From assembly GCA_963805945.1 (NCBI GenBank), contig CAWDVP010000002.1, positions 608,001 to 672,000 of the forward strand: a DNA stretch of 64,000 nucleotides, given 5' to 3'. Below, piece by piece: positions 5,223 through 42,252 of this stretch; within the stretch, counting starts at the first letter, position 1, and each line of letters starts with the position of its first letter. The DNA is from Vulcanimicrobiota bacterium (GTDB lineage Bacteria > Vulcanimicrobiota > Vulcanimicrobiia > Eremiobacterales > Eremiobacteraceae). The translations under genes and the position numbers were made by a program. A model generated the notes under the pieces. It searched no databases. It had not been told where the DNA came from and worked only from the letters and a program-made list of their open reading frames with translations.

Positions 5223-5477
5223 CTAGAACTTGAACTGGGAGCGGACTTCGCTGACGCGTTCCTCGACGAACTTGGTCACCGTCTTGCGCAGCGCTTCGCG
5301 ATGCTCTTCCTCAAGCCGGTTATAGATGACGTAGCCCGCGGTCGCCAGCACGGCGCCGATGACGCCGGCGACCAAGGCACCTCGCATCTCGCTCGAGCCG
5401 TCGTCGGGTAGTTGTCGGCCTGGATTGCTGCTGCTGCCGTTCGGCAGGGCGGCGTCCTTGTTGGTCATCGAATCCAT
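5223..5477 (-). CDS. Small single-TM protein (YtxH-like)
   Basis: ALVAGVIGAVLATAGY TM segment followed by a charged helix. AAGGAG RBS upstream. Confidence 0.65.
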   Translation of the reverse strand: MDSMTNKDAALPNGSSSNPGRQLPDDGSSEMRGALVAGVIGAVLATAGYVIYNRLEEEHREALRKTVTKFVEERVSEVRSQFKF

Positions 5478-5479
5478 GA

Positions 5480-5878
5480 TCAGGCTCCTTTGCGGGGTTT
5501 GGGCTTTTCCGCGCCGCGACGGCGCGCCCCTGTGCTACTGGTGGTCACGGTCAGATAGCGTGGGTACGAGCGAGCGATCGCACGCAAGCCGGACAGCGTG
5601 GTCTCCAGCACCGCCTGGGCGCGGGCGTTGCCGCCGCCGGCGAGGCGTATGGTGTAGGCGTCGGCATCGTCCTCGATGTGGGCCGCCGCCGCGCAATGGC
5701 GCACGATGCCGTACGCCGCCGTCAGGACGAGCGCGCTCACCGCGGCGCACACGATGTCGTCGCCGACGGACGCGAAACCGGCGTGGCCGGTCACCTCGAG
5801 GCTGACGATCGCGCCGGCCTGGCGCTGTGCGGCGACGCGGAGGCTTCGGTCGGACTTCTTAGAGGGTGATCTTCTCAA
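5480..5878 (-). CDS. prp: Ribosomal-processing cysteine protease Prp (YsxB)
   Basis: VTGHAG...DIVCAAVSAL catalytic His/Cys motif, directly downstream of rplU. TTG start uncertain. Confidence 0.9.
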   Translation of the reverse strand: MRRSPSKKSDRSLRVAAQRQAGAIVSLEVTGHAGFASVGDDIVCAAVSALVLTAAYGIVRHCAAAAHIEDDADAYTIRLAGGGNARAQAVLETTLSGLRAIARSYPRYLTVTTSSTGARRRGAEKPKPRKGA

Positions 5879-6170
5879 TGCGCAGCTCGGTGATCGGCTG
5901 CCGGTGCCCGTTGCGCTTTCGGATGCGCTTCTTCGGCTTGTAATGGAAGACCATGATCTTGCGGTCTTTGCCCTGGCGGAGCACCCGTGCGCTCACCTTC
6001 GCGCTGCCCAGCAGGGGCGATCCGAGGCGCAGTTCTGAGCCGTCGTGGGCGAGCACGACCTTGTCGAAAACGATGGTGGCATCCGGCTCGCCAGCGATGC
6101 GGTCGATACGGATCACATCTCCTTCAGACACCTTGAACTGACGGCCGTTGGCCTCGAAGACGGCGTACAT
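5859..6170 (-). CDS. rplU: 50S ribosomal protein L21
   Basis: MYAVFEANGRQFKVSEGD...KRIRKRNGHRQPITELRIEKI. Confidence 0.97.
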   Translation of the reverse strand: MYAVFEANGRQFKVSEGDVIRIDRIAGEPDATIVFDKVVLAHDGSELRLGSPLLGSAKVSARVLRQGKDRKIMVFHYKPKKRIRKRNGHRQPITELRIEKITL

Positions 6171-6244
6171 GCGTTGTGACCTTCTTAAGAAGCGGAGAGA
6201 GCGATGAAATGGGCTTAAGATTGCATTGCGCGACGCAAAGGGAA

Positions 6245-6274
6245 ATCCTATCACACGACCTTCGTATCAGTCAA
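6245..6274 (-). promoter_or_regulatory. Sigma70-type promoter for rplU
   Basis: TTGACT-18 bp-TAGGAT with a TGn extension, on the minus strand. Confidence 0.55.
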
Positions 6275-6338: not shown

Positions 6339-6431
6339 TCGTACTTGGTACGTGGGACAACCCGCGTCTTGGCAACCCGACCAATGGAGGTGGGCTCTCC
6401 CTGCTCGTTCACCCTGTGGGGGGTCAATTTA

Positions 6432-6869
6432 TTGAACGCACTCGGCACACACATCATCGTCGAACTGTCGGATTGCAACGCCGCGATCCTCAGCGACGTG
6501 GACCGAGTTGAGAACATCCTCGTAGCAGCAGCAAAAGAAGCCAACGCAGAAGTGCTGCAGACCGCTTTCCACCGCTTCACGCCCCAGGGTGTGAGCGGTG
6601 TCGTCGTCATCGCTGAATCACATCTGTCGATCCACACCTGGCCCGAGCTTGGCTATGCGGCTATGGACATCTACACATGCGGCGACAGCACCGATCCCTG
6701 GAAGGCCTGCCGCTACGCGGCCAGCGCGTTCCAGGCGAAGCAGATGCTGACCACGGAAGTGCGCCGCGGAATGCCCAACGAAGAAGGCGTGTACAGCCAC
6801 ACCGTTGGACGCAAGACGTCCGGAGCCGAACCGGTTGCCAAAAACCGAAAACTTTCAGTGGTACGTTGA
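6432..6869 (+). CDS. speD: S-adenosylmethionine decarboxylase proenzyme (pyruvoyl, class 1b)
   Basis: LGTHIIVEL..C, F.PQGVSGVVVIAESHLSIHTWPE.GYAA.D.YTCG. TTG start 6432 after a G-rich SD. Confidence 0.93.
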   Translation: MNALGTHIIVELSDCNAAILSDVDRVENILVAAAKEANAEVLQTAFHRFTPQGVSGVVVIAESHLSIHTWPELGYAAMDIYTCGDSTDPWKACRYAASAFQAKQMLTTEVRRGMPNEEGVYSHTVGRKTSGAEPVAKNRKLSVVR

Positions 6870-7722
6870 GCAAGTCGCCCCAGGCGAGATCCACGGCCAC
6901 GCGCTGACCGCGACGCTGGCGTCGGGCCGCTCCGAGTATCAGACCTACGCGGTCGTCGCCAGCCCCCTCTTCGGAACCATGCTCGTCCTCGATGGCGATA
7001 CGCAAAGCGCCGCCTTGGATGAGTATATCTATCACGAAGCGCTCGTCCACCCCGCCTGCGCCGCCGCGGGTGCGCCGCAGCGTGCGCTGATCCTCGGCGG
7101 CGGCGAGGGCGCGACGCTGCGCGAATTGCTGCGCGTGCCTTCCATGCGCAAAGTCACCATGGTCGACATCGACGGCACCGTCGTCGAGGCGTGCCGCAGA
7201 CACATGCCGGAATGGAGCGCCGGCGCGTTCGAAGATCCGCGCAGCGAGCTTATCATCGGCGACGCCAAGGCCTATATCGAACGCTCGGACGAGCTGTTCG
7301 ACGTCATCATCGGCGATCTCACCGAGCCCGTCGAGGACTCGCCATCCTACGGCCTGCACACGGTGTCCATGTATACCACGATCCGCAAGCGGCTCACGCC
7401 GCAGGGCCTCTACGCGCTGCAGACATCCATGGCGGGGCCACACAATTTCGCGCTGCATGCGCGTATGATCGCGACGCTGAGGGCTGCGTTTCCAAGCGTG
7501 GCGGCGTATTGCGTCTACGTGCCGGCCTTCGACACGGAGTGGGGGCTGGCGCTCTGCGGCGCCAAGGTGGCGGCGCAGACGGACGCGGCGGCGGCCCGGG
7601 CCGACGCGCACGCGGCGGCGTGCGGCGGCTTGCGTTTCTACGACGCCGAGTCGCATCGCGGAATGTTCAACGTGCCGCGCTACCTTCGCGACGCCTATGG
7701 CGCGGCGGTCCCGCTGACCTAG
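6835..7722 (+). CDS. speE: Polyamine aminopropyltransferase (spermidine synthase family)
   Basis: SEYQ, LVLDG.TQS..DEYIYHEALVHP, LILGGGEGATLRE, VDID, DVIIGDLTEP. TTG start 6835 after GGAG. Confidence 0.92.
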   Translation: MPKTENFQWYVEQVAPGEIHGHALTATLASGRSEYQTYAVVASPLFGTMLVLDGDTQSAALDEYIYHEALVHPACAAAGAPQRALILGGGEGATLRELLRVPSMRKVTMVDIDGTVVEACRRHMPEWSAGAFEDPRSELIIGDAKAYIERSDELFDVIIGDLTEPVEDSPSYGLHTVSMYTTIRKRLTPQGLYALQTSMAGPHNFALHARMIATLRAAFPSVAAYCVYVPAFDTEWGLALCGAKVAAQTDAAAARADAHAAACGGLRFYDAESHRGMFNVPRYLRDAYGAAVPLT

Positions 7723-7734
7723 TCTGTCGACGGA

Positions 7735-7759
7735 TGGAGCGGTCGAATTTATTCGACCG
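7735..7759 (+). repeat. REP-like palindrome, family 1 (single copy)
   Basis: TGGAG-CGGTCGAAT-TT-ATTCGACCG between convergent speE and methyltransferase. The same unit recurs at 20860, 34891 and 45078. Confidence 0.85.
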
Positions 7760-7780
7760 AAGAAGCGCACCTTTGGGTTG

Positions 7781-8554
7781 TCACCGCCTCGCAACTAGAA
7801 GAACTTCTCGGACTCGTGGTGGCCTCTTGGCCTTTTCGAGTCCCTCAAGCGCCTCCGTGATGAGCTCCTCAGCCGGCGGTCCGATCTCGCGGCGCAGCTC
7901 GTCGGCGCGCTCCAACCATGCGCGATAGACACCAAGAGAGCTGGCTTCAAAGTCTGCGACCTCCTCGCGAACCTCGACAGTGAATCCGGCCGCTTCAAAT
8001 ATCGGCCTGTAGTCGCGCACGAGCGTGGGAAGAAACGGGTCCACAAGGGTTTCGGCCGCCCGAACGACAGCCGTGCCGTTAGGCTTGAGAATGCGGGCGA
8101 TCTCATGGACCGCACATGGATGAATGAACATCAGCGCATCGATACTCATGACGCCGTTCACAGATGCGCTTTCGAGCCCGGTGGCCACAGCCTGCGCGAC
8201 CACAAATCGCGCTCGCGTCGTCAATCCCCGCTGCTGGGCAAGCGTTTGTGCGGCCTTCACGGCCGCGGCGGAAAAATCCACTCCCACGAGCGCCGCGCCG
8301 GTATGCTCGGTAACCCAAATGCCAGGACCGCCAAGCCCACAGGCTAGGTCCACGAACGTGTCGCCCGGTCCCACCTTCAAAAGACTGGCGATCCGAGTAA
8401 GGTCCTTGAACGTGACGGTACTATATGGTGCGAGCCAGTCAGGCAGCTCAGGATCAGCAGCGTGCATCGCCTCGCGATAGACTTGGCTTGTGGCCAATGC
8501 CGCAAATATGCGATCAAAATGGTCGGCCGGATACGCTTGCTTGGGCTCCTTCAT
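7781..8554 (-). CDS. Class I SAM-dependent methyltransferase
   Basis: FVDLACGLGG motif I, GVDFS, ARILKPNG. Confidence 0.88.
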   Translation of the reverse strand: MKEPKQAYPADHFDRIFAALATSQVYREAMHAADPELPDWLAPYSTVTFKDLTRIASLLKVGPGDTFVDLACGLGGPGIWVTEHTGAALVGVDFSAAAVKAAQTLAQQRGLTTRARFVVAQAVATGLESASVNGVMSIDALMFIHPCAVHEIARILKPNGTAVVRAAETLVDPFLPTLVRDYRPIFEAAGFTVEVREEVADFEASSLGVYRAWLERADELRREIGPPAEELITEALEGLEKAKRPPRVREVLLVARR

Positions 8555-9063
8555 ATAATGTCTGGCTTGACATAGGCGACGGCGCGGTCCACGCATTCGG
8601 CGACAGAACGGGTGCCGTTAAGGACGAGGCGCGGATCATGCCACGGCTCATAGCCGCGTGCGAGGACCTCGGCCCACGTCGGCTGATGCAGTTCGGGCAG
8701 ATCCCATTCTCGCCGTTCCACGCGCCGGCGACGCTCGATTTGGTCATCGCACGTGAGCTCAATGACCCTCAGCTTCACGCCACAACGCTGCGCAAGAGCA
8801 CGCCATTGAGCGCGCGGCGCTTCGCTGTCATTAACAGCGTCGATGATGACCGTGGCGCCAGCGCGCAAGCTTGACTCCGCGACTGCCTCGGCGATAATGT
8901 AGTCTGTCTGTCCGACCGGATCGGGTACCGCGCCGGCGCGACGCAAGGCTGCCCCGATCGCGTCAATCCGTAGGTGCGCGCAGCGCAACTCTTTGGCGAG
9001 TGCGGCGGCCAACGTTGTTTTCCCAGTTCCGGGAAGCCCTGCTACCACGATGAGCACAATCAC
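8551..9063 (-). CDS. AAA_33-like P-loop nucleotide kinase
   Basis: GLPGTGKTT Walker A, VIIDAVN, ERRRRVERR lid. Start approximate. Confidence 0.85.
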   Translation of the reverse strand: MIVLIVVAGLPGTGKTTLAAALAKELRCAHLRIDAIGAALRRAGAVPDPVGQTDYIIAEAVAESSLRAGATVIIDAVNDSEAPRAQWRALAQRCGVKLRVIELTCDDQIERRRRVERREWDLPELHQPTWAEVLARGYEPWHDPRLVLNGTRSVAECVDRAVAYVKPDII

Positions 9064-9161
9064 CAACTTGGCGGCACACGGGCTGTTCTCATACGCTCGC
9101 CCGGACAAGGGGATGCTATGCGGTCGTTGGCGTGAGGCGGTACGCGAGTTAGCATGACGGT

Positions 9162-9235
9162 GGGCCGAGCGCGCTAGCGCGGGTCGCCTTTTGACGGTAG
9201 GACGACGCCGGGTTCGATTTCCCGGAGGTCCACCA
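9162..9235 (+). ncRNA. Non-canonical tRNA-like element or pseudo-tRNA (tmRNA TLD-like 3' end)
   Basis: GGGCC/GGTCC-A-CCA acceptor, CCGGG-TTCGATTT-CCCGG T arm, and two further hairpins (see findings). Confidence 0.55.
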
Positions 9236-9248
9236 ACTTTGGAGGGGA

Positions 9249-9503
9249 GTGATGATCGATGCGGCGACGATCCGGGGATTCGTGGAGGCGACGGCGCGGC
9301 GTAATCGTGCCGCGGGGCGCCGGTTAAGCCCTACGGCGCTGGTGGCAGCGCTCGAAGGGTTTGTCAAAGCGCGCGCGATCGCGTACGGTGGGCGAGCGTC
9401 TTTGCCACGTGGCGCACGGACCGCAGCGGTCAAGCAATACCGCGCCTTGATGGGCGGCGCACGTGCGCTGGCTAAAGGGAACGGCGTAACATACGTTTCT
9501 TAG
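9249..9503 (+). CDS. Small basic hypothetical protein
   Basis: Strong GGAGGGG SD at 9241. Arg/Ala-rich 84-aa ORF with no recognisable family. Confidence 0.5.
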   Translation: MMIDAATIRGFVEATARRNRAAGRRLSPTALVAALEGFVKARAIAYGGRASLPRGARTAAVKQYRALMGGARALAKGNGVTYVS

Positions 9504-9623
9504 TCACGCTTGCGTGTGTGGGCACGTTTGCGCTGTGCAGCGTGCTCCCGTTGTCGTCGCGAACAGCCTGAAACCGATCGAGTCCGCGGGGACGCACTCA
9601 CGTAACGCCGCAGCAAGCGCGGT

Positions 9624-10448
9624 TTGAGCAGAAAGACTGCCGCCACTTCCTTTAATCGAGAAGCTAGGACTAGGCGCGACGCGAACGAAGCTCCTCCCAT
9701 TCTAAACAGCACGCCCGCCCTGCAAAACATCGCGACCGATATCTGGCTGGTCGACGGTCCAAGCGTCCGCGCGGCCTTCGTGTCGTTCCCAACCCGGATG
9801 ATCGTCATCAGGCTCAGCGAGGGATCGTTATGGATCAACTCACCAGTTGCTGTGCCACGCGAAACGCTCGACCAGATCGTGGCGCTCGGCCCAGTTCGGT
9901 ATCTCGTGGCGCCCACAGCGCTTCACGCGTGGAGACTGAAGCGATGGCACGCGCTTTTTCCCGAAGCGCAGATTTGGGTCGCCCCGAAGATCGCGCGCGG
10001 GTTTGCACGTAGTACCTTTGCCGCCCTAGCTGGGATCGCCCGATCGCCCGACCCACAACTGACGAGTTGGAACATTTTAGAAGATGCCCCGCCGGCTGCA
10101 TGGGCACAAGACCTCGACCAACTCGTGTTCGGTGGCAACTACTTCGTCGAAGAGGTAGAGTTCTTGCACAGGAAGTCGCGCACGCTCATGGTGGCTGATT
10201 TCATCCAAAACTACAGGGCTGAGAACGGAGACTTCCTCGGCAACATGGCGAGACGTGCGGCAGGCGTGTTGAACGGCGGCGTGCCACGTGACATTCGGTG
10301 GTCATTCACCAACAGGCAGCGTGCGCGAGCAAGCCTCAAGAGGTTGCTGTCATGGGATTTCGATAAATTGATTGTTGCCCATAGCTTCTGCGTAGAGCAC
10401 GATGCCCAGGCATTTGTGGAACGCGCCTTTCGCTGGTTGAGCGGTTGA
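9624..10448 (+). CDS. DUF4336 domain protein (MBL-fold-like)
   Basis: IWLVDG...TRMIVIRLS.GSLWINSPV...LGPVRYLVAP..LH...EVEFLH.KSRTL.VAD...WDFDKLIVAH. Start uncertain. Confidence 0.85.
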   Translation: MSRKTAATSFNREARTRRDANEAPPILNSTPALQNIATDIWLVDGPSVRAAFVSFPTRMIVIRLSEGSLWINSPVAVPRETLDQIVALGPVRYLVAPTALHAWRLKRWHALFPEAQIWVAPKIARGFARSTFAALAGIARSPDPQLTSWNILEDAPPAAWAQDLDQLVFGGNYFVEEVEFLHRKSRTLMVADFIQNYRAENGDFLGNMARRAAGVLNGGVPRDIRWSFTNRQRARASLKRLLSWDFDKLIVAHSFCVEHDAQAFVERAFRWLSG

Positions 10449-15634: not shown

Positions 15635-17087
15635 GCGCGGCGCCCCGGCCGCGGCGACGACGTTCGTGCGCCGACGCGGCGCCGCCGGCCGCTAGTTCCT
15701 CGACGCGTCGCTGCTGCGCAGCGAGCTGCCGATGCCCGATCTCGCCGAGCTCGAGGTCGCCCGCCACTTCACAGAGCTCTCCGGCCGCAATTTCTCGGTC
15801 GACCGCAACTTCTATCCGCTGGGCTCGTGCACGATGAAGTACAATCCCAAGCTCAACGAGGCGGTCGTCGGCGTTCGCGGGCTTCACCGACCTGCATCCG
15901 TTCGCGCCCGACGCCGGCGCGCAAGGCGCGCTGCACCTGCTCTGGGACATGGAGCGCACGCTCGCGGCGCTGTTCGGCATGACGGAGTTCTCGCTCATGC
16001 CCGCGGCAGGCGCGCACGGCGAGATCACGGCCATGCTCATGGCGAAGAAGTATTTCACCGAGATCGCGGCAAGCGCGAGCGCAACGTCTGCCTCGTGCCC
16101 GACACCGCGCACGGCACGAATCCGGCGAGCGCGGCGATGGTCGGCTACCGCGTCATGTCGATCCCATCGACGAGCCGCGGCCGCACCGACTCGCCGCGCT
16201 GCGCGCCAAGCTCGACGGCTCGATCGCCGTGTGCATGATGACCAACCCCAACACGCTCGGGCTGTTCGAAGACGACATCATCGAGATCGACGCAGGCGGT
16301 GCACGCCGCCGGCGGGCTCATGTACTACGATGGTGCGAATGCCAACGCCATCGTCGGCCTGTGCCGGCCGGGCGACATGGGCTTCGACCTCATGCACCTC
16401 AACCTGCACAAGACGTTCTCCGTGCCGCACGGTGGCGGCGGTCCGGGCTCGGGTCCGGTCGGCGCGCAACGCGAAGCTCGCCAAGTATCTGCCGCGACCG
16501 CTTGTCGTCCGTGACGCCGACGGGAGCTTCGCGCTCGATTGGAACGGCGATATGCCGCGAGCATCGGCCCCGTGCGCGTGTTTCTGGTCGCACTTCCTCG
16601 CCGTGGTCCGCGCCTATGCCTACATCATCGTGCACGGCGAAGAAGGGTCTGCGCCGCAACAGCCAGCTCGCCGTGCTCAACGCGAACTACGTGCGCGCGA
16701 AAGTCAAGGATGTCCTCACCGTGCCGTACGACGACTTCTGCCGTCACGAGTTCGTGTGCTCGGCCGAGGACGCTCAAGAAAGAGACCGGCGTGCGGGCGC
16801 TCGATCTGGCCAAGGGCTTGCTCGACGCCGGCGTGCACGCGCCGACCATGTACTGGCCCCACGTCGTGCCCGAGTGCCTCATGATCGAGCCCACCGAGAC
16901 GGAGACGAAGGAGACGCTCGACGCGTTCGTGGCGACGCTGCGCACGAACTCGTCGCGCTCAGCGCACGCCGATCCGGCGTCAAGGTGCAGCAGATGCCGC
17001 TGCACACGCCGGTGCGCCGCGTCGACGAAGCGCAGGTGGGCCGTCAAGCGAACAAAGGCATCGGCCTGCGCTGGAAGCCGCATAGTG
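15615..17087 (+). CDS. gcvPB: Glycine dehydrogenase subunit 2 (multiple indels; end approximate)
   Basis: [69 protein letters not shown] 15615 after GAGGAG. Confidence 0.92.
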
Positions 17088-17551
17088 AAGGATGCGCGCC
17101 GCCGGCGAGCAGGTCAAGCACGAGCGATCCGCCGGCGGTTTCGTGCTAGCGCGCGGGCGACTGCGTACTCGGCGCTCGTGATCGGACGCAGCACGCCGCG
17201 CATCTGGTCGCTGCCCAAAGGGCACATCGAACCCAATGAGACGATCGAGGACGACCGCGCGTGCGCGAAGTGCTACGAAGAGACGGGCGCGCACGCAACG
17301 ATCATCGAGAAGCTCGCCGACATCAGTACTGGTTCTACAGCAGCCGGCTCAAGCACAGCAAGATCGTCCACTTCTACCTCATGCGCTACCTCAAGGGCGC
17401 GCTGGTGCCGCAAGAGGGCGAGGTCGAAGAGGTCGCATGGGTGCCGCTGGCCGAGATGGCCAAGCGCTGACGCATCTGAACGAGCGGCGGCTGGTCATGC
17501 TGATCGAGAAGATCGTGCAAGAGAAGTCCGCGGCCGACCTCGGGCTTTTGA
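17085..17551 (+). CDS. NUDIX hydrolase (multiple indels; ends approximate)
   Basis: [21 protein letters not shown]....REV.EETG Nudix box, KIVHFYLM. Confidence 0.8.
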
Positions 17552-18578
17552 GAGATTCGCCGCATCGCCGGAGCGCTCGCCGCGCTCGCGCTCGCCTCGC
17601 GGCTGCGCGGGGCACGAGCAAAGCCCGGCGCCGACGCCCGCACCGACGCCCTCGCCCACGCCTGCGGTCGCCAATCCGCTCAACGGCGCGATGACGCCGC
17701 CGCGCAGCATCCGTCATCGCATCGCCGCGATCATGATCGACAACTATCCCGACGCGCGGCCGCAGAGCGGCTTGCACGACGCCGACGTCGTCTACGAAGT
17801 CGAAGCCGAGGGCGGCATCACGCGATACATGGCGCTGTTCCTGAGCACGCCGGCCGCGGAGGTCGGCCCGGTGCGCAGCGCGCGCACGTATTTCGTCGAT
17901 CTCGCGCGTCCCTACGATCCGTTCTTCGCCCATGCCGGCCAGAACGACGACGTCATCGACGTGCTGCGCGACCTGCGCTCGGGCGGTTTCCCGGATATGG
18001 ACGAGATCCAGCAGACGCCCGACGCGTTTTGGCGCGACAACTCGCGCGACATGCCGCACAACCTCTACACCAGCGTGCCGCGCATCCGCAGCGTAGGCCC
18101 CAAGAGCGGCTATCCGGACCACGTCTACGACGGCAAGCAGTTCGCGTTCAACGCACCCGGCCCCGCGCCGTCGCCCACGGCGGTGCCCGAGACGGTCGCC
18201 TCCTTCTGGCTGGACTATGACGTCCATTTCGTCTGGGATGGCCGCGCCTACGAACGCTTCATCGACGGGCAGGCGCAGCACGATCGCGACGACGACCGGC
18301 CGTACGAGGTCGCGGACATCATCGTCACGTGGATACCGGCGACCGTCAAGGACAAACTAGGCGATCTCGACATGACCGTCTACGGCACGTTTCCCGCGCT
18401 GCTCATCGTCGACGGTCGCGTCACGAAGGCGCAATGGATCGCCGCGGGGCCGACGACGTTGCCGACCATCGTCGGCGACGACGGTTCGACGCTCACCTTG
18501 CGCCCGGGGCAGATCTACGTCGAGGTCCTGCCGCAGGGCAGCACCGTGAAAACCGGGAAACTAGTCGTCTCGCATTAG
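17548..18578 (+). CDS. DUF3048 domain lipoprotein (indels in N-terminus)
   Basis: [33 protein letters not shown]...[13 protein letters not shown]. Lipobox-like GC near the start. Confidence 0.85.
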
Positions 18579-18663: not shown

Positions 18664-19396
18664 TTGCTGGTCAAACTCGACGTCTTCGACGGTCCCCTCG
18701 ACCTGCTGCTCCACCTGGTCCTCGAAGCCGACCTCGACATCACGAGCGTCAGCCTTGCCGACGTCTGCGAACAGTACATGGCCTACCTGTCGCTCATGGA
18801 AGGCCTCGATATCGACGTCGCGAGCGAGTATCTCGTCATGGCCGCGACGCTGCTCTTCATCAAGTCGAAGAAGCTGCTGCCGCCGCCCCCGCCGCCGTTC
18901 TCCGACGACATGGAAGACGAAGCGGCGATCGCCGAAGAGACGTTGCGGCAGCGGCTCATCGCGTATCAACATTTCAAACGCCTGGGCGCCGCGTTCCGCG
19001 AGCGCATGGAAGAGAACGCCGCATACTATCCGAGCGGCGCGTTCGCGGAGAGCGGGCTGGTCCAGCATTTCCAGATCGAGGGCGGGTCGCTCGCCATCGC
19101 GTTCGCGCGCGCGCTCGCCAACGCTGAGGCGCGTCCGCAGGTGGTGAAGCGCGAGACGTTCTCGATGGTCGTCAAGATGAACTACGTGCTGCACCAAGTA
19201 GCGCGAATGCGCGACGCTCGCGTTCTCCGAGCTCATCGCGGGCTGCCGCAGGCTCGAGGTCGTCGTCACCTTTCTCGCGCTGCTCGAGCTGGTGAAGGCG
19301 CGCAAGGTGCACGCCGTGCAGCCCAAGCTCTTCGCCGACATCGTCATCACGCCGGCGCCCAAACAGGTCACGGAGCGGCTTGGCAAGTCTGCGTAA
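18664..19396 (+). CDS. scpA: Segregation and condensation protein A (frameshift near 19220-19250)
   Basis: FDGPLDLLLHLV, ASEYLVMAATLLFIKSKKLLP; VVTFLALLELVK in the shifted frame. Confidence 0.9.
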
Positions 19397-20053
19397 CCGC
19401 GTCGAGGCGGTGCTCTTCGTCGCCGACAAGCCGGCGTCCGAAAAGGAGATCTGCGCCGCCACAGGCGCCGCGCCCGCCGAAGTGCGCGCCGCGCTGCGTG
19501 AGATCGGCGCCGGGCTCGACGGTCATGGTCTCGCGCTGCGCGAGGTCGCGCGGCGGCTGGCGGCTCGTCACGCATCCCGACTGCCGCGACGACGTCGAAC
19601 GCTTCCTCTTGCCGCCGAAGACGCACATGTCGCAGGCGTCGCTCGAAACGCTTTCCATCGTCGCCTACCTGCAGCCGGTGACGCGCGCCGAAGTCGAAAG
19701 CCTGCGCGGCGTCAACGTCGACGGCGTCATGCAGACGCTCGAGGATCGCCGGCTCATCAAAGAACTGGGGCGCAAAGAGACGGTCGGCAGGCCGATCGAA
19801 TACGGCACGACCGACGGTTTCTTGGAAGCGTTCGGACTGCGTTCGCTCGACGATCTGCCGCCGCTGCCGGAAGGCGCACCGCGCCGGATCGGCGGCCAGG
19901 TGATCCCGATGCCGCTGTCCGCGCGGCGCCAAGAAGAGATCGGGCAGATCCACGAGTCGGTGGAAGGCCACGAAGGCGACCAGGTGCCGCATTCGCGAGT
20001 CGAAGCTCGAGCACAGCGTCGCAGAAGAACTCGCGCACGCCCTCGACGAGTGA
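19380..20053 (+). CDS. scpB: Segregation and condensation protein B (frameshifts)
   Basis: VEAVLFVADKP, SQASLETLSIVAYLQPVTRAEVESLRGV, GRPIEYGTT.GFL..FGL.SL.DLPPL. Confidence 0.9.
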
Positions 20054-20844
20054 GGTATCCGTCGGATTTCGATACGCTCGTCGAGGAGTACGTGCGCTAT
20101 CGGACATCCTATTCCAGCGAACTGTTCGACGTCGTCGCGGAGTACATCGGCCGGTCGCCTGACAAACGCGTGCTCGACGCGGCATGCGGCACAGGGCTTG
20201 CCACCCTTGGCCTGCTCGAGCGCGGCTTCGCCGTCACCGGCATCGACGTCGCAGAGCGGATGCTCGAGGTCGCGCGTTCGAGCATGCCCGCCGGCGCCGA
20301 CGCAGCGTTCTATCCGGGCCGCGCGGAGGCGCTGCCGTTCGCGGACGCCGCCTTCTCCGGCGTCATCTGCGCTCAGGCGTTCCACTGGTTCGACGAGGCG
20401 CTCGCGCTCGCGGAGTTCGCCCGGGTGCTGCAGAACGGCGGCGCGCTCGCGATCTTCTGGAAGCACGCGCGCCCCGACGACCGCTATGCGCGCGCGGTGA
20501 GAGAACTGCTCACGCAGTGGACCGGCCGCTCTGAGGCGCCGATGGAGAGCAGTTTCCGCGACTCGCTCGCCGCGTTCTGGTCCGAGATCGGCGGTTCGGG
20601 CGAGGGCCGGCACGGCTCGCTGTTCGGCGAGGCCGAACTGCGCATGCTGCGCTTCGGGTTGCGCTACGACGTCGATTCCTACGTCGGCTATCATCGCTCG
20701 CGGGAGAACCTGCGCATCGCGCTCGGCGATCGGCGCGAGCAGTTCCTCGACGAGGTGCGCAAGGAGATCGAGGCGTTGGCGCCGTCGTCGGGCGAGTTCG
20801 AGGTCGAGCAGGACCAGTTCTTATATCTCGCGCGCAAGCGCTGA
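20050..20844 (+). CDS. Class I SAM-dependent methyltransferase (Methyltransf_11-like)
   Basis: GTG overlaps the scpB stop. VLDAACGTG, AEALPF, AQAFHWF. Confidence 0.88.
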   Translation: MRYPSDFDTLVEEYVRYRTSYSSELFDVVAEYIGRSPDKRVLDAACGTGLATLGLLERGFAVTGIDVAERMLEVARSSMPAGADAAFYPGRAEALPFADAAFSGVICAQAFHWFDEALALAEFARVLQNGGALAIFWKHARPDDRYARAVRELLTQWTGRSEAPMESSFRDSLAAFWSEIGGSGEGRHGSLFGEAELRMLRFGLRYDVDSYVGYHRSRENLRIALGDRREQFLDEVRKEIEALAPSSGEFEVEQDQFLYLARKR

Positions 20845-20859
20845 GAATCCCAACGGACT

Positions 20860-20930
20860 TGGAGCGGTCGAATTTATTCGACCGACCCTCACGTAAAAAA
20901 AAAGACGGTCGAGTAAACTCGACCGCTACA
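20860..20930. repeat. Inverted REP doublet (REPIN/BIME-like), family 1
   Basis: TGGAGCGGTCGAATTTATTCGACCG (20860-20884) and the inverted copy CGGTCGAGTAAACTCGACCGCTACA (20906-20930, GTAG head on the minus strand). Confidence 0.85.
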
Positions 20931-20965
20931 TAGGAGAACCCGTACGGCAGGCTAACCAGGTGCGC

Positions 20966-26749: not shown

Positions 26750-26843
26750 TGGCGGGAGAAGATAGGAATCGAACCTACCGGTCCCCTTGCGAAGACCAAC
26801 TGGTTTTGAAGACCAGCAGGGGCACCAGCCCCATGCTTCTCCC
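26750..26843 (-). tRNA. selC: tRNA-Sec (anticodon TCA)
   Basis: 94 nt. GGGAGAAG/CTTCTCCC-G-CCA 8-bp acceptor, GGGGC-TGGT-GCCCC D arm, CTGGT-CTTCAAA-ACCAG anticodon arm, long variable arm and GGTTCGATTCC T loop. Confidence 0.97.
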
Positions 26844-33502: not shown

Positions 33503-34879
33503 TCAGCGCGTCGGGCCGCCGTCCGGAGGTGCGTGCTCTCCGGCGGTCGCGAGGGCGTGCCCAAGCGAGACCAATTCTCCCTCGCGGACCGTGCGCAGGT
33601 CGATGACTAAGCGTTCGCCGTCGACTTTTCCGATCACGGGCGGCTGATGCCGGCGCAGGCGCATGGCATAAGCGTCGGGCCCGCCAGCATAGGCGACCGC
33701 GACGCCGGCGGACGGGATCGCCACGTCCGGCAGCGTGCCGCCGCCGGTGGTGGAGACGGTCTTCACGGTCGTGATCTGCAGCGCCGGGTTGCGCGCGTGC
33801 ACGGTGAGCCGGAGCTGCTCGGCCCGCGCCAGCAGCGCGTCCTGGGTGAGCGCGAGCATGGCGAAGAGCGGCAGATCGGTGAGCTGCCCGTCGACGTATG
33901 CGGTGAGCGTCGCGCCCAACGCCGCCAGCGTCATCTTGTCGACGCGCAGCGCGCGCAGCAGGGGGTTGCGCCGGATCGCGGCGATGAGATCGGCGCGACC
34001 GGCGATGATGCCGCACTGCGGCCCGCCGAGCAGTTTGTCGCCGGACACCGCGACGAGGTCGAGACCCGCGGCGATCTCTTCCGCCAGCGTCGGCTCGTGC
34101 GGCAGGCCGAACGCGTGCAGCTCCACGAGCGCGCCGATGCCGAGGTCCTCGAACGAGATCACCTCGAGCTCGCGCGCCAACGCGGCGAGCGTCGCCGCGG
34201 AGACGCCGGCGGTGAAACCGCTGACGCGATAGTTGCTCGGATGCGTGCGCATGAACATCGCGGTGCTCGGGTTCCACGCATCGCGATAGTCGCGGACGTA
34301 GGTCTTGTTCGTCGTGCCGATCTCTACGAGGGTGGCGCCGCTCTTGCCGAGCACGTCGGGCAGACGGAATCCGCCGCCGATCTCGATGAGTTCGCCGCGG
34401 CTCACCACGACCTCGCGGCCGCGCGCGAAGGTGTCGAGCACGAGCAGCACCGCCGCCGCGCAGTTGTTGACGACGAGCGCCGCTTGCGCGCCGGACACCT
34501 CGCGCAACAGCGAGGCGACGCGGTCGTAGCGCGTGCCGCGCTCGCCGCTGCCGACCTCGTATTCCAGATTGGTGTAGCCTGCGCTCAAGGTCCGCACCGC
34601 ATCGAGTGAGGCGTCGGAGAGCGGCGCGCGGCCGAAGTTGGTGTGGAGCAGCACGCCCGTGCCGTTGATGACGTGGATGAGGCTTTCGGTGTGGGCGGCG
34701 CCGAGCCGCTCCAGCACGCGTTCGCGCAGCGCGTCGAAGCCGACCTCGATCGTGCCGCTGCGCGCTTCCTCGAGCACCGCCTGCACGTGCGAGCGCACGC
34801 CGCTGCGGCCGATGATCGAACCGTAGGTGGCGATCGCCGGGTCGGTGGTGAGGCGATGGACGGCGGGGATGTCTCTCAT
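33503..34879 (-). CDS. selA: L-seryl-tRNA(Sec) selenium transferase
   Basis: VINGTGVLLHTNFGRAPL, VNNCAAA, SRGELIEIGGGFR, HPSNY, SGDKLLGGPQ.G, RALRVDK. Confidence 0.96.
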   Translation of the reverse strand: MRDIPAVHRLTTDPAIATYGSIIGRSGVRSHVQAVLEEARSGTIEVGFDALRERVLERLGAAHTESLIHVINGTGVLLHTNFGRAPLSDASLDAVRTLSAGYTNLEYEVGSGERGTRYDRVASLLREVSGAQAALVVNNCAAAVLLVLDTFARGREVVVSRGELIEIGGGFRLPDVLGKSGATLVEIGTTNKTYVRDYRDAWNPSTAMFMRTHPSNYRVSGFTAGVSAATLAALARELEVISFEDLGIGALVELHAFGLPHEPTLAEEIAAGLDLVAVSGDKLLGGPQCGIIAGRADLIAAIRRNPLLRALRVDKMTLAALGATLTAYVDGQLTDLPLFAMLALTQDALLARAEQLRLTVHARNPALQITTVKTVSTTGGGTLPDVAIPSAGVAVAYAGGPDAYAMRLRRHQPPVIGKVDGERLVIDLRTVREGELVSLGHALATAGEHAPPDGGPTR

Positions 34880-34890
34880 TGAACAACCCT

Positions 34891-34943
34891 TGGAGCGGTC
34901 GAATTCATTCGACCGCCTCGGTCGAGTAAACTCGACCGCTCCA
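34891..34943. repeat. Inverted REP doublet, family 1
   Basis: TGGAGCGGTCGAATTCATTCGACCG (34891-34915) plus CGGTCGAGTAAACTCGACCGCTCCA (34919-34943). Confidence 0.88.
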
Positions 34944-34952
34944 TTTCAGGTT

Positions 34953-35285
34953 CTAGGCTGCGGCGAGGTGTTTCTCGACCATCGTCGAGAGATGCTTCTC
35001 CGGCACGTAGCCGACGATGCGGTCCACCGGCGCGCCGCCCTTGAACAGGATGAGGCACGGGATGCCGGACACATCGTATTGCGCCGCGAGGTTCGGATTC
35101 TCGTCGGTGTCGAGCTTGACGACCTTGAGGCGCCCTTTGTAGGCGTCCGCGATCTTGTCGACGATCGGCGCGATCATCTTGCACGGGCCGCACCAGTCGG
35201 CCCAGAAGTCCACGAGCACGGGCTCGTTCGACTTGAGCACTTCGGTGTCGAAATTGGTCTGATTGACGGCTGTTGCCTGGCTCAA
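34953..35285 (-). CDS. trxA: Thioredoxin
   Basis: VLVDFWADWCGPCKMIAP. Confidence 0.96.
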   Translation of the reverse strand: MSQATAVNQTNFDTEVLKSNEPVLVDFWADWCGPCKMIAPIVDKIADAYKGRLKVVKLDTDENPNLAAQYDVSGIPCLILFKGGAPVDRIVGYVPEKHLSTMVEKHLAAA

Positions 35286-41716: not shown

Positions 41717-41858
41717 GCTCGGCCCGGGCAAGTATCGGCTGTATTCGCGCAAGATCGACCCACGGACCGGCAAGCGCAGGAACCTTGGCACGTTCGGGAC
41801 TCGCGCGGCCGCCGAAAAGCACGAGCGCGCCGTGCAATTCTTCAAGCGCAAGGGCTAG
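41706..41858 (+). CDS. Small basic conserved hypothetical protein (50 aa)
   Basis: MIRKLGPGKYRLYSRKIDPRTGKRRNLGTFGTRAAAEKHERAVQFFKRKG. Below the ORF-track cutoff; resembles a recurrent uncharacterised family (from memory). Confidence 0.75.
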   Translation: MIRKLGPGKYRLYSRKIDPRTGKRRNLGTFGTRAAAEKHERAVQFFKRKG

Positions 41859-41879
41859 AGGTCGTTGGCGCGCCTGCTG

Positions 41880-41913
41880 TTATATTGACAAATGTCAATA
41901 TAAGCAGTAGGAT
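41880..41913 (+). promoter_or_regulatory. ars promoter with ArsR/SmtB-type operator
   Basis: 11-2-11 inverted repeat TTATATTGACA-AA-TGTCAATATAA (41880-41903) overlapping TTGACA-17 bp-TAGGAT. Confidence 0.85.
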
Positions 41914-41919
41914 TGGCCC

Positions 41920-42252
41920 ATGCCGATACCTCGCTGCTGCCCGCCGGCGACCATCGTCCGCGCGGATTATACCGAAGAAGCCGAGCTGCTCAAGGCCGCC
42001 GCAGATCCGCATCGATTGCTGATCATGGCGACTCTCGCGCGCAACGACGACGCCGTCTGTGCATGTGACTTCATCGATGCGCTCGGGCTCAACCAAGCGA
42101 CGGTATCGCATCACTTGAAGATCTTGCGCGACGCCAAGCTCGTGCGCGCCGAGCGCCGCGGCACATGGGTGCACTACACGCTCGCGCCGCGCGCGCGCCG
42201 GCGGCTCGTCGACGTGCTTGACGCGCTGCAGCCGAAAAGGATCGCCGCATGA
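41920..42252 (+). CDS. arsR: ArsR/SmtB metalloregulator
   Basis: LKAAADPHRL.I, VCACD, QATVSHHLKILR.A.LV...RRGTWVHY and an N-terminal CC. Confidence 0.92.
   Translation: MPIPRCCPPATIVRADYTEEAELLKAAADPHRLLIMATLARNDDAVCACDFIDALGLNQATVSHHLKILRDAKLVRAERRGTWVHYTLAPRARRRLVDVLDALQPKRIAA

Follow-up and report, generated by a model that had tools for sequence, protein, structure and literature searches.

Several RNAs are known in which a tRNA-shaped module lies on the same transcript as a coding region. In E. coli these are the thrS operator, where a mimic next to the Shine-Dalgarno (SD) sequence is bound by a protein, and the operons tufB and tyrT-tpr, in the second of which the tRNA is followed by a small basic open reading frame (ORF). 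A further case is mascRNA from MALAT1. These RNAs are recognizably tRNA-derived or mimic the anticodon arm alone. We have analyzed an element in 64,000 nt of DNA (termed the window) from a Vulcanimicrobiota bacterium of the family Eremiobacteraceae (assembly GCA_963805945.1, contig CAWDVP010000002.1, positions 608,001 to 672,000 of the forward strand). The element is found at 9162-9235 on the + strand of the window, directly before a small gene. Like the systems above it would place a tRNA-shaped module and a coding region on one transcript, but its mimicry is confined to the acceptor and T-arm half. We suggest, tentatively, that the element forms the structured 5' leader of an mRNA that encodes a small, conserved and basic protein, and that this tRNA-shaped leader acts in cis. 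Its likeness to a T arm may reflect convergence on the T-loop motif or descent from a tRNA. Full-text searches of the literature found no description of such a tRNA-shaped leader.

Features of the element and the downstream gene

The features on which the analysis rests are as follows.

9127-9155 (+): promoter-like site under a relaxed rule, TTGGCG (9127-32), 17 nt, TAGCAT (9150-55)
9159-9234 (+): four-way junction with an 8-bp closing helix, GGUGGGCC/GGUCCACC; the sole version that is the minimum-energy fold
9162-9235 (+): 74-nt tRNA-like unit; 5-bp acceptor with G.U as third pair, then A and CCA
9162-66 and 9227-31 (+): acceptor strands GGGCC and GGTCC; third pair G9164.U9229
9170-81 (+): D-like mini-hairpin CGCG-CTAG-CGCG; 4-bp stem, 4-nt loop without GG
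9183-9206 (+): central arm; 7 bp, bulged A9202, 9-nt loop UUUGACGGU; pair probabilities 0.91-0.98
9208-25 (+): T-arm-like hairpin CCGGG-TTCGATTT-CCCGG; 5-bp stem, 8-nt loop; pair probabilities 0.89-1.0
9232-35 (+): discriminator-like A9232, then encoded CCA 9233-35
9241-47 (+): SD sequence GGAGGGG, 5 nt after CCA and 4 nt before ATG
9252 (ATG)-9503 (+): gene for an 83-aa basic three-helix protein, from relatives, profile search and AlphaFold2

The bases at 9159-9260, with their coordinates, are those described in the first-pass annotation of this DNA, and every sequence feature that it listed, from the acceptor to the SD, is present. The linker is GAG, and a single nucleotide, G9207, separates the central arm from the T arm. 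The palindrome of the D-like hairpin permits a second register at 9169-9180, so that the loop is CUAG or GCUA.

Comparison with tRNA and tmRNA

The closest likeness is to tRNA-Ala and to the tRNA-like domain of transfer-messenger RNA (tmRNA). Read from G9162, the element has equivalents of G1-C72, G2-C71, G3.U70, A73 and CCA together with a T arm of the GTTCGA type, and, as in the tmRNA domain, a canonical D loop is lacking. The T-like loop, UUCGAUUU, contains the canonical GTTCGA motif and a single additional U ahead of C61, and the equivalents of G53, T54, T55, C56, G57, A58 and C61 are all present.

Elsewhere the element departs from the canonical form. A tRNA has a 7-bp acceptor and a single-stranded NCCA end, whereas here there are either 5 bp and a G.A opposition followed by ACCA, or seven layers without CCA. 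U8, the G18 G19 of the D loop and a variable loop of 4-5 nt are all lacking. The 5-bp anticodon stem and 7-nt loop with U33 and a purine at 37 are replaced by the bulged 7-bp stem and 9-nt loop, and the T loop has 8 nt rather than 7 on its 5-bp stem. The element has no anticodon loop as in a tRNA, nor the tag reading frame or pseudoknots of a tmRNA, and its ACC can pair with the 5' flank.

Among the models in Rfam the best alignment is to selenocysteine tRNA (tRNA-Sec), with which the element shares an 8-bp acceptor, a 5-bp T stem and a 4-nt D loop. Both tRNA-Sec and the allo-tRNAs have an anticodon arm and a long variable arm, however, while the element has a single central arm. Its 8/5 arrangement with a bulged A also differs from the 8/4 or 9/3 of the allo-tRNAs, as these are set out in a review (PMC7609411). 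The same review describes irregular tRNA-like forms from soil and peat bacteria, some of which are perhaps not for translation, and notes that some allo-tRNAs carry G3:U70 (Mukai et al. 2017, reviewed in PMC7609411).

Predicted folding

The first-pass annotation proposed that 9162-9235 folds into a four-armed cloverleaf. The helices can be drawn, but the cloverleaf is not the minimum free energy (MFE) structure of this 74-nt RNA. The MFE is -33.9 kcal/mol for a different pairing (z = -1.41, with 18 of 200 shuffled sequences equally good), and the cloverleaf with its 5-bp acceptor scores -30.7 kcal/mol. What had been overlooked is that GGU 9159-61 is complementary to ACC 9232-34. On including these three nucleotides the picture changes. 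The MFE structure of the 77-nt RNA 9159-9235 is the four-way junction closed by 8 bp, at -40.7 kcal/mol, making up 60% of the ensemble (z = -3.23, and none of 200 shuffles as good). An RNA extended into the mRNA from 9159 also has the cloverleaf as its MFE structure, at -43.6 kcal/mol. The cloverleaf is therefore robust only when GGU 9159-61 is present.

All four helices are fully paired save for one bulge and one G.U pair. This is more in keeping with a structure that is being maintained than with a pseudogene in decay. The opposite strand has z = -1.44, no better than its shuffles; the strand was assigned mainly from the lone G.U pair, the motif in the T loop and the direction in which the downstream gene is read. 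Within the window the combination of a TTCRA hairpin and a closing helix is found only in the tRNA-Sec gene and in this T-like hairpin. The element lies on the + strand within a gap of ~140 nt between divergent genes, and is oriented as the downstream gene. It is on the intact helices and this position that we base the argument for a maintained structure.

We estimated how often such an object arises by chance using a descriptor comprising TTCRA in a loop of 7-8 nt on a 5-bp stem, a closing helix and an MFE structure with three hairpins, applied to 1500 dinucleotide shuffles of the window. With a closing helix of at least 8 bp there were 17 matches, only two of which were as stable as the real sequence. 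The Rfam alignment to tRNA-Sec points in the same direction. It covers 9159-9234 with the anticodon arm deleted, and its 18.1 bits, rescaled by our own arithmetic to one family and the whole window, correspond to E ~0.02. This is suggestive, but not significant genome-wide.

The alanine identity elements and their register

The 9162 register carries the identity set for alanine (G3.U70, A73 and CCA) that the first-pass annotation had emphasized, yet this is not the best fold. AlaRS, the alanyl-tRNA synthetase, charges acceptor minihelices carrying G3.U70. It could be proposed that a 74-nt, CCA-ended RNA (9162-9235) is released, is charged by AlaRS by virtue of G1-C72, G2-C71, G3.U70 and A73, and partners the basic protein as a decoy, an aminoacyl donor or a rescue-type module. 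This register does contain pairs one to three of the acceptor together with A73 and an encoded CCA, and with transcription from the promoter-like site the primary 5' end would fall at ~G9162, so that no RNase P step would be needed. Irregular tRNA-like genes with G3:U70 do exist in soil bacteria and can insert alanine, according to PMC7609411.

The structure of the element speaks against this. The alanine set is confined to one register that requires a 5' end exactly at G9162, and this is not the best fold either alone or within the mRNA. In the robust fold GGU 9159-61 pairs with ACC 9232-34, so the discriminator A and the CC are paired rather than free. Between the T stem and ACCA there are just six layers, i.e. 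5 bp and G9167.A9226, so that acceptor and T stem form 11 stacked layers compared with the canonical 12. The relaxed model from ARAGORN takes a seven-layer stem from U9161, which shifts the G.U to 4:69 and leaves no CCA. There is neither a GG in the D loop nor an anticodon-type loop, no detector recognizes the element, and a 3' cut exactly after A9235 must be assumed. We consider a released, alanylated RNA very improbable. The composite version, in which the leader itself starts at G9162, is cut after CCA, is charged by AlaRS and forms a two-part RNA-protein module with the 83-aa protein, seems to us at least as improbable. Such a module would be comparable in its logic to tmRNA-SmpB or to dedicated non-ribosomal aminoacyl donors, in an uncultured lineage.

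Signals for expression and the downstream gene

The promoter-like site was found with a relaxed rule requiring at least four of six matches in each hexamer, and A2 and T6 in the -10 element. There are 22 such sites on the + strand of the window, one of which ends 6 nt before G9162; from this site a transcript start at ~9161-9164 would be predicted. A scan of 8900-9700 gave no terminator, and thus none between the element and the ORF. Because no terminator separates them, the co-expression with a partner protein that had been proposed is plausible, with a tRNA-shaped fold placed directly before a strong SD.

In ensemble folds, pairing of the first five bases of the SD is mostly absent (unpaired probability 0.37-0.92, the lowest values of 0.37-0.53 being for a 5' end at 9160). 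The last two G nucleotides (9246-47) are mostly paired, with an unpaired probability of 0.09-0.47. A switch that sequesters the SD is not supported, given that the first five bases are largely unpaired for most of the 5' ends tested.

The ORF was first described as encoding 84 aa. It is a real, conserved gene for a small basic protein, but the relatives indicate 83 aa beginning at ATG 9252. A GTG at 9249 is in frame with this ATG; we take the ATG as the start because all the relatives begin at MID. Among 115 candidate proteins seven matched with E up to 0.01, comprising the protein itself, five full-length relatives with 73-88% BLASTP identity and one frame-broken relative. A profile search of 1.84 billion representatives returned six clusters of 65-96 aa. 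Four of these are distant small relatives (E = 3e-9 to 9e-4) that retain the pattern F..A...R.R..G.R ... ARA.A.G ... LPRGA ... YR. AlphaFold2 predicts three helices (residues 4-21, 27-45 and 55-76) with a pLDDT (predicted local distance difference test) of 77.7. The protein has no match in Pfam, NCBIfam, PHROGs, PDB or BFVD, and the ESM Atlas gave no usable lead. The ORF is therefore a real gene of a tiny family of arginine-rich, basic, helical proteins.

A resemblance by eye to SAM-like N-terminal domains raised the idea that the protein is the remnant of an integrase. This was rejected, as there is no Pfam match at E = 10, no PHROG, and no fold match in PDB or BFVD.

From these observations we infer a transcription start, co-transcription, binding of a protein and a function for the element. 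Transcription would start from the sigma-70-like promoter at 9127-9155, at ~9161-9164. The first ~75 nt would fold during synthesis into a compact, tRNA-shaped body of several hairpins, with the D-like mini-hairpin, the long central arm, the T-arm-like hairpin and a helix closing the 5' and 3' ends, finishing 5 nt before the SD. A 5' end that is paired from its first nucleotide might shield the short mRNA from decay that depends on the 5' end. The tRNA-like body could also act as an operator to which an RNA-binding factor attaches; the simplest candidate is the arginine-rich protein of three helices that is encoded downstream.

Evidence against a leader, and the possibility of a chance fold

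A number of observations weigh against the proposed leader. Caution is required because every tRNA model fails, because the registers conflict, and because searches of other DNA gave no comparative support.

We take the models first. The checks with ARAGORN and Rfam suggested in the first-pass annotation did not lead to acceptance at default or gathering settings. ARAGORN in default mode and Rfam at gathering scores each find nothing at the element, and in the whole window report just the tRNA-Sec gene at 26750-26843 (- strand). With E up to 10 over 9100-9300, the tRNA-Sec alignment is the best, but its 18.1 bits compare with a threshold of 47, and E = 0.26 even for this 201-nt search. A miRNA match in the same search is meaningless. 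The tmRNA mode of ARAGORN gives nothing at its default or at -ps60, and the tmRNA model of Rfam has no match at E up to 10 in 9100-9300; the element is just 74-77 nt long. At -ps80 ARAGORN does label 9161-9234 as 'tRNA-?', at a setting that makes 157 calls in the real window and a mean of 117 in 60 shuffled windows. The element is no longer called at -ps85, which makes 55 calls, or at -ps90, which makes 10, so 55 other sites in the window scored as more tRNA-like. We rejected the relaxed call as evidence since it is at the level of noise, and disregarded an intron-mode 'tRNA-Ala' at 9122-9235 for the same reason. In summary, no tRNA, tmRNA or tRNA-Sec model accepts the element. The tRNA-Sec gene of the window is by comparison genuine, with 78.4 bits in Rfam, the anticodon TCA according to ARAGORN, and a discriminator G followed by a DNA-encoded CCA.

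The second difficulty concerns the 5' end. The predicted start at ~9162 conflicts with an 8-bp helix that needs 9159-61. For an RNA of 9162-9270 the cloverleaf is at -36.0 kcal/mol and another fold at -41.0 kcal/mol, so that the cloverleaf is worse by 5 kcal/mol. Moreover the promoter match is weak (8 of 12 positions), and a stricter scan of 8900-9700 found no promoter.

Thirdly, searches for the locus in other DNA were unproductive. A single scan of genome contigs with the alignment of the ORF gave only two loci, both of them spurious. One, L001 in Rhodoplanes (10001-10192), lies inside a longer reading frame and shares MIDPATIRAFVE, a chance match forced by the pattern, with no tRNA-like sequence upstream of the matched frame. 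The other, L002 in Segatella, is weak, with E = 6e-4 over 36 residues. A blastn search with 9150-9510 found nothing in phages and, in plasmids, just three short matches attributable to chance, and tblastn of the proteins P0003 and P0011 against plasmids gave nothing. No predicted protein of relatives was found to overlap the RNA in a search with the antisense ORF at 9149-9433. In one relative, P0009, only the first ~26 residues are common, after which it continues in another frame.

Lastly, the stability of the fold is ordinary when taken alone, with 558 of 31,962 sliding 77-nt windows at or below -40.7 kcal/mol. If the closing helix of the descriptor is relaxed to at least 5 bp, there are 119 matches in the 1500 shuffles, of which 16 are stable. 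Without the MFE rule, a TTCRA hairpin with a closing helix of at least 5 bp occurs 1.8 times per shuffled window, and one with at least 8 bp in 13% of 300 shuffles. Overall, the probability that a window contains the 8-bp version by chance is about 0.1-1%, compared with 1-8% for a 5-bp closing helix, and such objects would be expected roughly once per few megabases of similar DNA.

These results, including the failure of the 74-nt unit to stand out from its shuffles and the non-canonical form of every loop, are what would be seen if the structure were not selected, and a GC-rich (66%) intergenic stretch simply happened to contain a GTTCGA hairpin with complementarity around it. A chance fold is a serious rival, which we judge somewhat less likely than a leader. 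The full combination of T arm, 8-bp closure, three-hairpin MFE structure and equal stability is that found in just the two shuffles noted above, and all four helices are intact. The element also begins just downstream of a promoter-like site, between genes and in the same direction as the next one, which would lower the probability of a chance origin further.

Genomic neighborhood and possible descent from a tRNA gene

Two genes on the opposite strand lie upstream.

8551-9108 (-): AAA_33 P-loop kinase, upstream and divergent
7781-8596 (-): class I methyltransferase, upstream

Further upstream are speH and speE, L21 and Prp, and downstream are genes for DUF4336, an FAD monooxygenase and a GcvT-like protein.

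It is possible in principle that the element is the relic of a tRNA gene. Either a whole tRNA, or a piece of one deposited by a mobile element, would have lost its canonical loops and would now simply occupy the 5' region of an unrelated gene. The T arm, with its full set of conserved nucleotides and a single inserted U, could be so explained, and the 74-nt length and ACCA end resemble the encoding of CCA in the tRNA-Sec gene of this genome. Partial, non-canonical tRNA genes that derive from integrating elements are common in prokaryotes according to PMC9897764, and like the fragments and attachment-site (att) duplications treated there the element is a non-canonical, low-scoring sequence with an intact 3' T arm and CCA. 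It differs from those fragments in keeping both acceptor halves, in having no repeat, integrase or island nearby, and in preceding an ORF that is not recombinase-like.

The first-pass annotation had allowed that the element might be a decayed tRNA or tmRNA att scar, and nothing inside the window supports this. Within the 64 kb the 28-nt 3' half is not repeated, even when three mismatches are allowed, nor do its telling 12-mers occur elsewhere there. Of the ORFs scanned over 1-23 kb of the window, none had a domain typical of integrases, transposases or phages. A relic would also have had to suffer several independent insertions or deletions (in the D loop, variable loop, anticodon arm, T loop and acceptor length) while its stems remained perfectly paired, and no tRNA model scores it above noise. 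We regard descent as a relic as distinctly improbable, and return to the proposal of a structured leader as the preferred reading.

A conserved module of kinase, RNA and ORF was also considered, and dropped. The best NCBIfam match of the kinase is PSTK, the Ser-tRNA(Sec) kinase, with 32 bits against a cutoff of 290, which represents generic P-loop similarity. There are 67 kinase homologs at E up to 1e-10 among 2044 candidates, including a close relative from a Candidatus Eremiobacteraeota genome with 59% identity. Just one of the 67 comes from a contig of the same length (31,487 bp) as that of a homolog of the ORF, and that copy of the ORF is frame-broken. The kinase homolog on this contig (P0023) matches over the C-terminal 80 residues alone, its N-terminus being unrelated. 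P0009 and P0023 are either pseudogenes or assembly errors in the relatives.

Other observations in the window

Several further features were seen. In the region 5223-6254 (-), where L27 would be expected after L21 (5859-6254) and the Prp protease (5480-5878), there is instead a hydrophobic ORF of 84 aa that is unrelated to it. The genes speH (S-adenosylmethionine decarboxylase, 6345-6869) and speE (6805-7722; 232 bits in NCBIfam) overlap by 65 nt. An ORF of 377 aa at 6661-7794 (-) has no family match and atypical GC content by codon position, and is probably a spurious antisense frame.

The 679-aa frame at 16539-18578 (+) has a C-terminal domain of glycine dehydrogenase at residues 77-135 together with the N- and C-domains of DUF3048, which suggests either an over-extended ORF or a broken gcvP gene upstream. 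A 726-aa frame at 18664-20844 (+) runs through ScpA, then ScpB and then a class I methyltransferase domain, and may represent either a fusion or neighboring genes read through in GC-rich DNA.

The most stable 77-nt folds after correction for GC content are long, near-perfect hairpins at ~34868-34965, ~20848-20940 and ~41837-41935, with energies down to -45 kcal/mol. The first two appear on both strands. All three are candidate terminators, inverted repeats or ends of mobile elements.

Significance

If the fold has arisen by chance it carries a caution, that about two GTTCGA hairpins with a closing helix can be expected by chance in 64 kb of GC-rich DNA, and that relaxed tRNA detectors return more than 100 calls per window. 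Should the structure prove to be real and conserved, it would represent mimicry of the acceptor and T half of tRNA at the 5' end of an mRNA encoded in a bacterial chromosome. It would then provide a handle on the recruitment of RNase P, the CCA-adding enzyme and AlaRS to transcripts that are not tRNA, and on the function of this family of small basic proteins.

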